Translations under genes and position numbers: made by a program
The notes under the pieces: generated by a model
What the model saw: the letters and a program-made list of their open reading frames with translations, nothing else
Database searches by the model: none
Told to the model about the DNA's origin: nothing
Source: a virus
Lineage: Duplodnaviria; Heunggongvirae; Uroviricota; Caudoviricetes
Direction: 5' to 3' (one strand)
Length of the DNA stretch: 35,472 nt
IMG/VR virus record: IMGVR_UViG_3300023181_000027
Span: 1-35,472 of that record
Shown: piece by piece, positions 4,514 to 16,075 of the stretch
How the letters are laid out: each line of letters starts with the position of its first letter
Position numbering within the stretch: position 1 is the first letter of the stretch

Positions 4514-4598
4514 TGGACGCGCGAGGAGTCGAACCTCGCATTATTCATATTTCAATTGAACTTCACAGTTCAATTCCCTCAGCCAGAGCGCCACGCCC
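4514..4598 (-). ncRNA. tRNA-like RNA G: Ala-identity acceptor with GNRA-capped helix instead of anticodon arm
   Basis: GGGCGTG/CGCGTCC with G3-U70, A73; T-arm CGAGG-TTCGACT-CCTCG; perfect AATTGAACT-GTGA-AGTTCAATT hairpin. Confidence 0.7.
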
Positions 4599-4652
4599 AT
4601 TAGGCTTTTAAGCCAGTACGCCTATACAGGTTTGGAAGCTGCATTTCGATTG

Positions 4653-4764
4653 TAAGTAAAAAGAGATTCGAACTCTCAATTTCAGCTATTCTCCTATCAC
4701 CCAGGTCTCTGATATTCACTGATGGCCCCTTATAGGCTGTATTTACCGATTCTACTATTTACTC
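4653..4764 (-). ncRNA. tRNA-like RNA F with long irregular helix replacing anticodon arm
   Basis: GAGTAAA/TTTACTT plus A73-C, D-arm GTA/TAC, T-arm GAGAG-TTCGAAT-CTCTT; central CAGC/GCTG and CCTAT/ATAGG. Confidence 0.62.
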
Positions 4765-4765
4765 G

Positions 4766-4885
4766 CGGAAGTGATCGGAATCGAACCGACACAGTACCAG
4801 GGACTTACATGGTCTACCAAAGTTATATCCGATTCGAACGGAGCCTCTCGCCAACAAGTAACTTCTACCATTAATGTACACTTCC
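4766..4885 (-). ncRNA. tRNA-like RNA E with a nested second T-arm module
   Basis: GGAAGTG/CACTTCC plus G73-C, terminal T-arm GTCGG-TTCGATT-CCGAT; internal AAGTTA/TAACTT stem enclosing TCCG-TTCGAAT-CGGA. Confidence 0.65.
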
Positions 4886-4889
4886 ATTG

Positions 4890-4962
4890 GGGTGAAGAGA
4901 GGATTCGAACCTCTGCCAATCATATCTTATACTACTGCACAACCAGCCATGCTCCATCACCC
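4890..4962 (-). ncRNA. tRNA-like RNA D: His-type G-1:C73 acceptor, degenerate anticodon arm
   Basis: G-GGTGATG/CTTCACC-C, D-arm GCAT/GTGC, T-arm AGAGG-TTCGAAT-CCTCT; anticodon stem poorly paired. Confidence 0.55.
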
Positions 4963-4968
4963 ATATAG

Positions 4969-5025
4969 TTGCAAGGGAAGGAATCGAACCTCCGCACATC
5001 CGAACTACCACTATTCTACCTTGCT
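4969..5025 (-). ncRNA. mini tRNA-like RNA C lacking the anticodon arm
   Basis: GCAAGG/CCTTGC, D-arm GAA-TAGTGGTAG-TTC, 8-nt linker, T-arm GGAGG-TTCGATT-CCTTC; 57 nt total. Confidence 0.68.
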
Positions 5026-7433: not shown

Positions 7434-7649
7434 TTAGTCTTTAATCCAGAAGCGACCATCGCTTTCAGATGCACCGTAGTTTAGACCGTCTTGCTCTAAG
7501 CGTTCTTTCATAGCTTCGAATACAGGGCGAGTGTCTTCACTGATGCTGTCTCTTACAGAACTTACGTTTACTGCTTTTGTAGTTTTAATTGTCTCCATCA
7601 TTGTATCAACCCTACGGGATACTGTTTCATTTACATTTGTCATAATCAT
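7434..7649 (-). CDS. hypothetical protein
   Basis: ORF between tRNAs. Confidence 0.6.
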   Translation of the reverse strand: MIMTNVNETVSRRVDTMMETIKTTKAVNVSSVRDSISEDTRPVFEAMKERLEQDGLNYGASESDGRFWIKD

Positions 7650-8552: not shown

Positions 8553-8646
8553 TGGGGTGTTAGGTGGGCGACGACCCCACGTTGTCTCTAAAGCGTTTCT
8601 CCAGTTTCACAGACTGGCCCCGAACACCTCCACGGGTTGCTAACAC
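8553..8646 (-). tRNA. atypical tRNA-His(GTG)
   Basis: CCAGT-CT-GTG-AA-ACTGG, C73-CCA; 20-nt variable region, T-loop GTCGTCG, no encoded G-1. Confidence 0.75.
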
Positions 8647-9280: not shown

Positions 9281-10561
9281 TTATAAGTCTCCTATTTCTT
9301 TCATTTCTTCTTCATCGAACATTTCTTCTTCTGGATCTTCACCATCTCTCTTTTTAAGAGCGGCAATGATTTCAGCTTTACTGTTCTTTAATTTATCCCG
9401 CATTATTTGCTTAACCACCCATCTAAACGCCTCACCAATCGCTTGTTCTCTGTAACCTAAGTCCATCATATCAAACGAATCAACAGCTAACTCTTTCAAG
9501 GTTTTAGGATATAAACCGGCATTAAACTGGTTTACCACGCCACTTCTTAATTTAGAATAATGATCATGTATGTCCGTATGTTTAAAGAATGGAGATGTAA
9601 GCATCTCAGGATAAAGTCTAAGATTCTCGAACAATTTCACCCTAGCTACCCAAGGGGACCATACATTAATAGCTTGTAGTGCTTTTAATCTTCTAGTAGT
9701 AGTACTATCAACTTTCAATTGCTCAGCGATATGCTTACCTTGCCAGTAAGCTCCACGAGTAGCAACCCAAATAAGTTGAGCAAAATCATCAATAGGTGGT
9801 TGCTTTTTTAGTTGCTCTACAGTGATGTGTGAACCGTAACCGTTATCATATCTGAACACTGGCGTCCACATATCCATTCTGATTATTAACTCCAAGCCTC
9901 TGTTAGCTACACCTTTATCCACCATCTTCTGTAACTCAATAGTAACCCTCTCAGCAGAGATCTTCTCCAGTTTAGCTTTATGCTTTCTAATGAGGGCAAT
10001 CATTGGTGTATCGATAGTAAAATCAAAGCGGGCAGCAAATTGTACAGCTCTCAATATACGTAATGGATCATCAACGAAGGCCGCATCACTCACACTCTTT
10101 ATAAGCCTAGACTTTATATCAGCTTGCCCTTTGAAGGGATCGTGAATAATTATTCCACCAAACCAAGGAATCTCAACAGCAATAGCGTTCATGGTAAAAT
10201 CCCTTCTTGCAAGATCTTCTTTGATGCTCATAAATGGATCCACTATTATTTCAAAGTCAGTGTGCTTACCACCTTCTTTCTTCACGTCTTTACGAGGGAT
10301 TGCGATATCAATCTCTTCCCCTCCTTTAGCTTTAAACTTTATTATACCAAACGATTTACCAACTTGATCAACTTTACCAAAGTTACTAAGTAATGTAATT
10401 AACTTATCTAGTTCAATGTTTGCTATCAAGATATCCAAATCTTTAGATTCCTCCCCTAGGAAGTGATCCCTTACAGCGCCACCAACACAGTATACTTTAG
10501 CTTTTTCAACTTGTAAACTGTCGAAGAATGGCAGCCCTCTTACTTTTTCTATACACTTCAT
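9281..10561 (-). CDS. cca: CCA-adding tRNA nucleotidyltransferase (class II)
   Basis: VGGAVRD..DLDI, DLARRDFTMNAIA, DDPLRILRA..FAARF, ERV..EL motifs; start set at MKCIEK. Confidence 0.92.
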   Translation of the reverse strand: MKCIEKVRGLPFFDSLQVEKAKVYCVGGAVRDHFLGEESKDLDILIANIELDKLITLLSNFGKVDQVGKSFGIIKFKAKGGEEIDIAIPRKDVKKEGGKHTDFEIIVDPFMSIKEDLARRDFTMNAIAVEIPWFGGIIIHDPFKGQADIKSRLIKSVSDAAFVDDPLRILRAVQFAARFDFTIDTPMIALIRKHKAKLEKISAERVTIELQKMVDKGVANRGLELIIRMDMWTPVFRYDNGYGSHITVEQLKKQPPIDDFAQLIWVATRGAYWQGKHIAEQLKVDSTTTRRLKALQAINVWSPWVARVKLFENLRLYPEMLTSPFFKHTDIHDHYSKLRSGVVNQFNAGLYPKTLKELAVDSFDMMDLGYREQAIGEAFRWVVKQIMRDKLKNSKAEIIAALKKRDGEDPEEEMFDEEEMKEIGDL

Positions 10562-10764
10562 TTGCAATGACAATCTGTTATGCTGTAACCACAGTAACCA
10601 AAACATCTAAATGGACGATGACAGAATAAACTCTCGCCTTCACCGTCATGATTCACATGTTCTTGTCCAGTGGTTAGCCAGCGTTTAAATATTAACCTTC
10701 TATTAAAATAGACGAACAGTTGATTATGTACTATCTCCTTTGTGATCATGACATTAATCTCCAA
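10558..10764 (-). CDS. hypothetical protein
   Basis: ORF only. Confidence 0.55.
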   Translation of the reverse strand: MEINVMITKEIVHNQLFVYFNRRLIFKRWLTTGQEHVNHDGEGESLFCHRPFRCFGYCGYSITDCHCK

Positions 10765-11068: not shown

Positions 11069-11350
11069 TCACAACATATCATTTCCCTTTTTCATTTGTT
11101 TATAGATTTTGATTTCTTGTTCGACAAAACTCCGCATCTTATCAAACCTCCATCCAGTGGGATGCATCGCCCAATAGTTTGATTTAAGTACAACAGCTGA
11201 TGGTGTGATATGATGGTATTCATCTACACACTTATGTGTATACCATTTAACAGCATCTTCAGTCCACTTAAAGCGCTTCTCAGTGTCTGACCACTCATAA
11301 CTATTTAAGTTGTTGGCTGATAACAACATATCTCTTACTCTTTCATTCAT
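11069..11350 (-). CDS. hypothetical protein
   Basis: Start moved to MNERV because the upstream extension is tRNA-Gly. Confidence 0.6.
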   Translation of the reverse strand: MNERVRDMLLSANNLNSYEWSDTEKRFKWTEDAVKWYTHKCVDEYHHITPSAVVLKSNYWAMHPTGWRFDKMRSFVEQEIKIYKQMKKGNDML

Positions 11351-14582: not shown

Positions 14583-14588
14583 TTATTG

Positions 14589-14670
14589 AGCAACTAAAAG
14601 GATTTGAACCCCTACTCCGTGAGGAACACGATTGCACTCGTGCGCGTCTGCTCTGTTCCGCCATAGTTGC
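14589..14670 (-). tRNA. atypical class II tRNA with non-7-nt anticodon loop (GTGCAA)
   Basis: GCAACTA/TAGTTGC, Leu/Ser-type D-arm, CACGA/TCGTG stem with 6-nt loop, variable arm TCC/GGA. Confidence 0.65.
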
Positions 14671-15250: not shown

Positions 15251-15254
15251 TTTG

Positions 15255-15327
15255 CGGGGCTGTAGAGGTTCGAACTCTAGTTCACGGTGTTAGAGACCGC
15301 TGCCTTAACCAATTAGACGACAGCCCC
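15255..15327 (-). tRNA. amber suppressor tRNA (anticodon CTA)
   Basis: Perfect GGGGCTG/CAGCCCC, G73, GCGGT-CT-CTA-AC-ACCGT, TAGAG-TTCGAAC-CTCTA. Confidence 0.9.
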
Positions 15328-15910: not shown

Positions 15911-15980
15911 TGGACACAGTCGGAATCGAACCGAATCATTCTCATTGCAAAAGAGACGCCCTGCCTTCGGGATCAGGCCC
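15911..15980 (-). tRNA. tRNA-Ala(TGC), weakly paired
   Basis: G3-U70, A73, TCTC(T)-TT-TGC-AA-(T)GAGA. Confidence 0.75.
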
Positions 15981-15987
15981 ATTTATG

Positions 15988-16075
15988 TGGGGAACAGTGG
16001 AATCGAACCACCATAGCCAATCTGGCGCCGAGTAACACCCCAGTGGAAATCACCAATTCTTTCCTTTGATACCCC
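15988..16075 (-). ncRNA. tRNA-like RNA I without a recognisable anticodon loop
   Basis: GGGGTAT/GTTCCCC plus A73, 5-bp D-stem GGAAA/TTTCC, T-arm GGTGG-TTCGATT-CCACT. Confidence 0.58.

Follow-up and report, generated by a model that had tools for sequence, protein, structure and literature searches.

What is an RNA for that has the acceptor end of an alanine tRNA and lacks a canonical anticodon loop? An 85-nt tRNA-shaped gene of this description lies at positions 4514..4598 on the minus strand of the window, by which we mean the whole 35,472-nt stretch of DNA analysed here. This stretch opens a linear virus record of 105,231 bp, itself a fragment. A sequence-only reading had taken the RNA for a mini-tmRNA with the layout of the tmRNA TLD, and had suggested that it could titrate SmpB or block trans-translation, or else act as an alanine donor or decoy. 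Here we weigh these roles, and others, against its structure, its genome and its relatives.

Anatomy and predicted fold

The element is real, and all of its described features are present on the minus strand, read from 4598 to 4514. The 7-bp acceptor stem is formed by the 5′ strand GGGCGUG (4592..4598) and the 3′ strand CGCGUCC (4521-4515), which together with the discriminator A73 at 4514 occupies 4514..4521. It contains G1-C72, G2-C71, the wobble G3·U70 (G3 at 4596, U70 at 4517), C4-G69 and a second wobble, U6·G67. The T arm (4522..4538) is fully paired (5/5 bp) and its loop, UUCGACU, fits the UUCRANY loop of the tmRNA TLD. In place of the anticodon arm stands a perfect 9-bp AU-rich helix with a GUGA (GNRA) cap (4554..4575), for which the alternative is a 7-bp stem with an 8-nt loop; the two pairs closing the cap have probabilities of 1.0 and 0.98. 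The acceptor with its wobble and A73, the T loop and the capped helix had all been read correctly beforehand, as had the lack of a tag ORF, none being possible inside a helix that is closed after 4 nt. What had been called a weak D region does exist, and its description needs revising: it is predicted as a shrunken tRNA-type D arm (GCUC / UGGCU / GAGG, 4577..4589), with the stem CUC/GAG around UGGCU at a pair probability of 0.82. In such a fold the GG of this arm could dock on the T loop. Missing from the earlier description was an unpaired AU-rich linker of 15 nt (4539..4553), which lies between the 9-bp helix and the T arm and ends in AUG.

The acceptor and T arm are thus fully paired and G-C rich, and the middle is AU-rich and aberrant. 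The tertiary core bases of a canonical tRNA (U8, A9 or R9, A14 and the C48 of G15-C48) are missing; the RNA has instead G8, C9, a 5-nt D loop and a G before the T stem. With a folding energy of −32.8 kcal/mol (z −3.77), the RNA folds better than every one of 200 shuffles. A 7/7 acceptor combined with a T arm was observed three times in the region, compared with once in 3000 shuffles of the region. ARAGORN at its default settings calls the RNA tRNA-???(gtga), and the ARAGORN search for a tmRNA that had been proposed as a check returns none at this position. The Rfam tRNA model (RF00005) gives it 19.5 bits against a cut-off of 29, and no Rfam Y RNA family (YrlA-type) matched at E values up to 5-10.

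The gene does not encode CCA, and the same holds for most tRNAs of the surrounding cluster. Since A73 is followed by a CUA tail, CCA must come post-transcriptionally, and the likely maturing enzyme would be the phage's own tRNA nucleotidyltransferase (CCA-adding enzyme; 9281..10606, minus strand).

Phage and genomic setting

A 134,778-bp ENA contig is identical to the record, indicating that the genome is longer than 105,231 bp; with 100% identity over 8.3 kb, this contig (L245) represents the phage itself and no independent relative. The terminase (27-29% identity) and DNA polymerase (37-38%) match those of crAss-like phages and the ribonucleotide reductase is 63.5% identical to that of Cellulophaga phage phi14:2. 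On account of these matches we place the phage as a putative distant crAss-like virus, with a host that is probably a member of the Bacteroidota. The single sequencing run that contains the region is a leaf-litter metagenome DNA run, possibly the source sample itself, in which no variants appear; no RNA sequencing run is listed as containing the region, and a promoter scan of it stayed at chance level.

The minus strand carries, at 2-20 kb, a cluster of more than 20 tRNA genes together with the CCA-adding enzyme. The RNA probably would be co-transcribed with this cluster and excised like its neighbours. Downstream of it lies a glucosaminidase-family gene (PF01832; 4088..4480, minus strand), our anchor for synteny, whose start codon is 33 nt past A73; an ATP-grasp gene is also near. 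Long ORFs follow the standard code, with TAG a rare stop among them (4/74), despite which the window holds an amber suppressor-type tRNA(CUA) at 15254-15327 (minus strand), as does the related phage locus L228. Other tRNA-type genes of the phage are unusual in their own ways. One at 14588-14670 (minus strand), adjoining a normal tRNA-Cys, combines U73 with a long variable arm and carries GCA in a 6-nt loop, and a short hairpin insert in the anticodon arm (AGUGA..UCACUUA motif) is common to five tRNA-type genes at G000:C1:73825-86947 (minus strand). In related phages a short class II synthetase-like protein (PF13393/PF00587, 205-221 aa) is encoded in or near the tRNA region (L123:1471-2136, L228:7931-8548).

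Alanine identity

Alanine identity in bacteria is set by A73, G2-C71, G3·U70, G4-C69 and G20, with G3·U70 as the major determinant (PMC9976931). The RNA has the first three of these. At position 4 it has C4-G69, not the G4-C69 of E. coli, and so do the phage's own tmRNA and tRNA-Ala. Among the phage loci that we fetched, G3·U70 and A73 occur together in 15/15 tRNA-Ala genes called by ARAGORN, compared with G3·U70 in 10/448 non-Ala calls; seven of these ten had been fetched by a G3·U70 pattern and one is the RNA itself, which leaves ~2/440 unselected. The rarity of G3·U70/A73 in non-alanine phage tRNAs makes an alanine identity credible, and from the identity elements we reasonably infer that AlaRS would charge the RNA. 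The idea of an alanylatable RNA without a normal anticodon, possibly a decoy, is to this extent supported. The GUGA cap has a second possible reading, as part of an 8-nt loop resembling an anticodon loop.

With bacterial and phage tRNA-Ala the RNA shares G1-C72, G2-C71, G3·U70, A73, the T arm and a GCUC...GAG D stem in the tRNA register. Its 5′ acceptor strand is identical to that of the phage tRNA-Ala(UGC) genes L006, L038, L053 and L239, and the acceptor as a whole nearly matches theirs. It differs from the canonical tRNA-Ala in having a GUGA cap or 8-nt loop where that tRNA has a 5-bp anticodon stem, a 7-nt loop and an NGC anticodon, and in its 5-nt D loop, long unpaired linker and missing U8, A9, A14 and C48.

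When IMG/VR was searched with an acceptor pattern that included G3·U70, 3/101 matches were tRNA-Ala and 90/101 gave no tRNA call, most of them being anticodon-less TLD-like RNAs, whereas the control pattern with G3-C70 gave an ordinary ARAGORN tRNA call in 36/40 distinct matches. Loci from other phages (L376, L381, L387, L394) hold RNAs that combine G3·U70 with a D arm and a non-standard anticodon arm.

Comparison with tmRNA

An RNA with G3·U70, A73 and no anticodon invites the view that it is a tag-less, TLD-only tmRNA, like that of mycobacteriophage DS6A, which binds SmpB and inhibits trans-translation. TLD-only (CDS-less) tmRNAs have been described in DS6A (tmID 11587; PMC4131195) and in the mitochondria of jakobids and the plastids of Mallomonadaceae (PMC11915505), and both papers report them as inhibitors of tmRNA. 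Using one acceptor pattern alone, we retrieved ~90 distinct TLD-only RNAs from IMG/VR (L002-L120), with very variable central helices. A large unannotated phage family of such RNAs exists, extending the published case of DS6A. Some contigs carry two of them (L059, L106), and in one subfamily (L010, L017, L025, L034, L096, L114) a D hairpin replaces the open D loop.

The RNA resembles this family in several respects. G3·U70 and A73 sit on a 7-bp acceptor nearly identical to that of the phage family, the 5-bp T arm is intact with its UUCRANY loop, a closed helix stands in for the anticodon arm, there is no tag ORF, and the family is likewise phage-encoded and ~75-100 nt long. A covariance model of the family (R1) finds in the RNA its best match in the window, at 36.4 bits, and the Rfam model tmRNA_permuted (RF04321) matches it weakly (20.3 bits against a cut-off of 47), over the T arm and 3′ acceptor only. 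However, R1 gives ordinary tRNA-Ala genes 34.5-45 bits and held-out family members mostly 53-62, and the model is circular for the acceptor, by which its training sequences had been selected; its middle helix was positioned manually in an alignment of the sequences. Because of this circularity we relied instead on an acceptor-free profile of the D loop and linker. On this profile the RNA scores −15.3 bits, below 88/88 members (leave-one-out minimum −1.6, median 14.2); 80% of its own shuffles reach that score and the ordinary tRNAs of the genome exceed it, whereas the phage's own tmRNA scores +7.8. For the D-loop block alone the values are −4.3 bits for the RNA and +6.5 for the tmRNA.

The underlying features point the same way. 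A TLD has an unpaired D loop without a D stem, in which GG is followed by a UUYGAC/UUAG-like motif (the SmpB site), and a short linker of ~3 nt that ends in AC directly after helix P2; the RNA has neither. In 87/97 TLD-only members GG stands 2-5 nt after the acceptor, compared with 7 nt, inside a D hairpin, in the RNA. A single helix separates acceptor and T arm in 78/97 members and two do so here; the linker, typically 3 nt, ends in AC in 92/97, against 15 nt ending in AUG. Imposing a fold of the TLD type on the RNA carries a penalty of at least 10 kcal/mol. SmpB contacts the D and variable loops, at A15, U17, G19 and A334 (PMC8363625), and since these are exactly the parts that differ, binding of SmpB to the RNA would not be expected. 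Judged by these features the RNA is not a TLD, and the layout first proposed for it fails.

The phage moreover encodes a full-length tmRNA of 500 nt (G000:C1:88150-88649, minus strand; L231:1501-2000), which scores 78.8 bits with RF00023 (cut-off 47). It is a separate gene outside the window, ~84 kb from the RNA, and is missed by ARAGORN at default settings; the RNA is not among the RF00023 matches in the genome. This tmRNA has a textbook TLD and a predicted 29-residue tag that ends in AYELV rather than in the usual ALAA type, and which may re-route or stabilise rescued proteins. Full-length phage tmRNAs (RF00023), as in mycobacteriophage Bxz1 and Bacillus phage G (PMC4131195), have the same alanine-type acceptor and T arm as the RNA, which lacks their message part. 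Unlike the TLD-only tmRNAs, then, the RNA belongs to a phage that additionally carries a full tmRNA. A gene for SmpB was not found in the 105-kb record, a fragment, and because the phage's tmRNA needs SmpB, titration of the host's SmpB by the RNA would probably cripple it. We found no support for SmpB titration or for a block of trans-translation, and regard a tag-less mini-tmRNA as decidedly unlikely. The RNA would rather work like an alanine-accepting tRNA mimic that belongs with neither the TLD-only tmRNAs nor the canonical tRNA-Ala.

Other alanine-type genes and the histidine-type loop

The RNA does not fill a gap in the phage's own set. A divergent tRNA-Ala(UGC) with G3·U70 and A73 lies at 15911..15980 (minus strand); it has several mismatched stems, scores 23.1 bits with the Rfam tRNA model and is missed by default ARAGORN. 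With this tRNA-Ala and the tmRNA already encoded, neither role is vacant. A tRNA-His(GUG) at ~8556-8641 (minus strand) has a degenerate T loop (GUCGUCG), an odd D arm, a long variable region and an encoded CCA; the related locus L122 holds a similar tRNA-His with T loop AUCGUCA. We therefore rejected the RNA as a missing tRNA-Ala or tRNA-His, the phage having both genes. A further G3·U70/A73 RNA, tRNA-shaped and 136 nt long (G000:C1:75573-75708, minus strand), carries a large insert and has a GAC linker, and its D arm is normal. One genome holds four such RNAs: the tRNA-Ala, the full tmRNA, the insert-bearing RNA and the RNA studied here. At 15988-16075 (minus strand) there is also an odd tRNA-like RNA of 88 nt, with G3-C70 and A73 and no canonical anticodon arm.

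Read as an open 8-nt loop, CU-GUGA-AG, the tip of the capped helix has a peculiarity: its first 7 nt (4568-4562) are identical to the anticodon loop of tRNA-His as encoded by the phage. That such a loop would contain one or other of the 24 anticodon loops of this phage has a chance of ~0.4%, compared with ~4% for the GNRA cap, both calculated post hoc. ARAGORN also reads the loop as ?(His|Ser)(gtga), and a neighbouring RNA at 4890-4961 conversely has a His-like end. The RNA might on these grounds be a chimaera of alanine acceptor and histidine loop, which opens to decode (alanine at histidine codons, or a four-base +1 slip) or to bait an anticodon nuclease or HisRS aimed at tRNA-His. The pairs closing GUGA are nevertheless predicted to form almost always, and a core without U8, A9, A14 and C48, joined to a 15-nt linker, makes decoding on the ribosome doubtful; as a quadruplet or +1 suppressor the RNA would have a possible 8-nt loop that is predicted closed, and an abnormal body. 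The flanking stem is unlike that of the tRNA-His, and the loops of the syntenic RNAs are unrelated. A genome scan for His-linked +1 frameshift sites gave six weak candidates, five of them behind ORFs of 5-9 codons, and none convincing. We regard such a chimaera as unlikely; the His-type loop may record only the origin of the anticodon arm.

Alanine identity without decoding also matches the design of non-proteinogenic tRNAs, of which the staphylococcal tRNA-Gly for FemXAB is an example. The RNA could accordingly be a dedicated alanine donor for a non-ribosomal transferase in cell-wall, lipid or protein alanylation, and the ATP-grasp and glucosaminidase genes are close by. Against this, no aminoacyl-tRNA-dependent transferase was seen in a non-exhaustive scan of the proteins, the normal tRNA-Ala already serves such enzymes, and the RNAs adjoining this one are not alanine-type. 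A donor role is the least probable of those considered here, and very unlikely.

The array and related loci

The RNA is the last unit of a tandem array of five anticodon-defective tRNA look-alikes on the minus strand (4514..5025; units 4969-5025, 4890-4961, 4766-4885, 4652-4764 and 4514-4598). All five keep acceptor and T arm and are without a normal anticodon arm, and G3·U70 is found only in the last. The His-like end of unit 4890-4961 consists of G-1:C73; unit 4766-4885 has a Ser-like end (GGAAGUG acceptor, G73) and an internal extra T-loop hairpin. In the leaf-litter metagenome run, a 427-nt contig of depth 3.4 joins a piece like 4766-4885 directly to the 3′ trailer, a weak hint. A low-threshold ARAGORN call of a split or permuted tmRNA across the array was dismissed as noise, such thresholds giving calls all along the genome.

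Searches of IMG/VR, JGI metagenomes and GenBank phages yielded no homologue of the RNA. An exact 26-mer of the T arm and acceptor had none in IMG/VR, and a pattern of the T loop and 3′ trailer had none in metagenomes and IMG/VR; a D-stem-aware pattern found only a tRNA-Ala and a tRNA-Lys-like gene, and a U6·G67 variant brought up tRNA-Ala genes, TLD-only RNAs and further odd RNAs, whose middle parts all differ from that of the RNA. Comparison with GenBank phages by blastn gave chance matches, and a 16-mer scan of bacterial genomes stayed at chance level, with no match extending beyond 20 nt. A literature search found no paper on the RNA or its array.

Related phages, with protein identities of 52-65%, were reached through the neighbouring glucosaminidase and CCA enzyme; one related-locus lookup with these two queries gave nothing useful. 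Between similar flanks, L228 has a different RNA in the same slot, with A3-U70, G73 and a 6-nt loop (non-alanine). L122 has an 81-nt RNA one small ORF upstream of the glucosaminidase (z −2.84) with G3·U70 and A73. Its D hairpin is tiny, its linker is long and it has a helix capped by a tetraloop (4 nt); its acceptor sequence is different and lacks G2-C71. The two RNAs appear similar in design, a likeness that falls short of provable orthology. The slot of L125 holds an unrelated long tRNA-like RNA, and L123, L241 and L242 hold none within the bases covered. These differences show that the slot turns over. The positional stand-ins are mixed as to G3·U70, absent in L228 and on a different stem in L122, and would neither establish nor cleanly refute its conservation. 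The 3′ trailer shared with L228 was considered as part of the RNA gene and rejected: in L122 and L241, where no RNA adjoins it, a similar sequence stands ahead of the glucosaminidase gene, identifying the trailer as the leader of that gene. Elsewhere in L228, two otherwise canonical tRNA bodies have non-standard anticodon arms (11120-11192, 7458-7531; a 6-nt loop and an ATT call).

These comparisons bear on the main rival explanation, that the RNA is a young pseudogene. On this view a gene of the tRNA-Ala type, either duplicated or acquired, has undergone decay or recombination in its core and anticodon arm and persists passively, with no selected function, in a part of the cluster that turns over fast. 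The lack of homologues, the variable slot, the loss of universal core bases and an acceptor near-identical to those of the phage tRNA-Ala(UGC) genes L006, L038, L053 and L239 would all be consistent with this. By contrast, the odd RNA at 15988-16075 is strongly conserved at L228:4315-4403, more so than the RNA studied here, with apparent compensatory changes. Decay, however, is expected to break stems randomly, and here the acceptor (7/7), the T stem (5/5) and the perfect 9-bp replacement helix are intact. Five consecutive units keep both ends and lose the anticodon arm only, and with relatives as distant as those sampled the missing homologues may reflect sampling. We consider a pseudogene somewhat unlikely, and the most serious of the rivals.

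A proposed non-decoding decoy

Our tentative preference is for an alanine-chargeable, non-decoding, tRNA-derived top-half decoy in an interchangeable array. We infer its expression, processing and alanylation, and its target is conjecture. Once provided with CCA, the RNA would be charged with alanine by the host AlaRS through G3·U70/A73, and its GNRA-capped arm and missing core bases should keep it from decoding. As one interchangeable unit of five look-alikes with differing acceptor identities, it would present its acceptor stem and T elbow, with no normal anticodon loop, to host proteins that read tRNAs, such as EF-Tu or the tRNA nucleases or sensors of anti-phage defence. What the analysis itself establishes is the predicted structure, the identity elements, the array context, the failure of the TLD features and the lack of homologues. 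The decoy reading is favoured by the four neighbours, in which the ends are likewise kept and the anticodon arms broken, by the odd-anticodon RNAs upstream of the same glucosaminidase gene in the syntenic L228 and L122, and by a phage-encoded CCA enzyme. Against it count the non-alanine RNA in the slot of L228 and the departure of C4-G69 from the G4-C69 of E. coli; and as no homologue was found, neither covariation nor conservation supports selection on the RNA.

In a bolder version of the decoy reading, which we think improbable, the whole array has been selected as a modular set of tRNA decoys that differ in acceptor identity, and the RNA is a deliberate chimaera, with an alanine-charged top and an openable histidine-type loop, that serves as bait against a host anti-phage system reading or cleaving tRNAs, or as a conditional four-base or mistranslating decoder.

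Parallels are offered by RNAs C and D of phage T4 and the small RNAs of T5, non-decoding stable RNAs of phage tRNA clusters. They too combine tRNA-like ends with a place in a phage tRNA cluster and no decodable anticodon. They are longer than the RNA and are not known to be of alanine type, and blastn against GenBank phages gave no sequence match to them.

As an orphan with no conservation support, the RNA on its own is a modest lead. It does make clear that a G3·U70 pair in an RNA lacking an anticodon is not enough to identify a mini-tmRNA. Alanine-type RNAs with no anticodon turn up repeatedly among phages, in several architectures. The four G3·U70/A73 RNAs of this one genome form an internally controlled set for asking what SmpB, EF-Tu and defence nucleases bind. 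If the array is truly a decoy panel, it would represent an RNA-based strategy of counter-defence.
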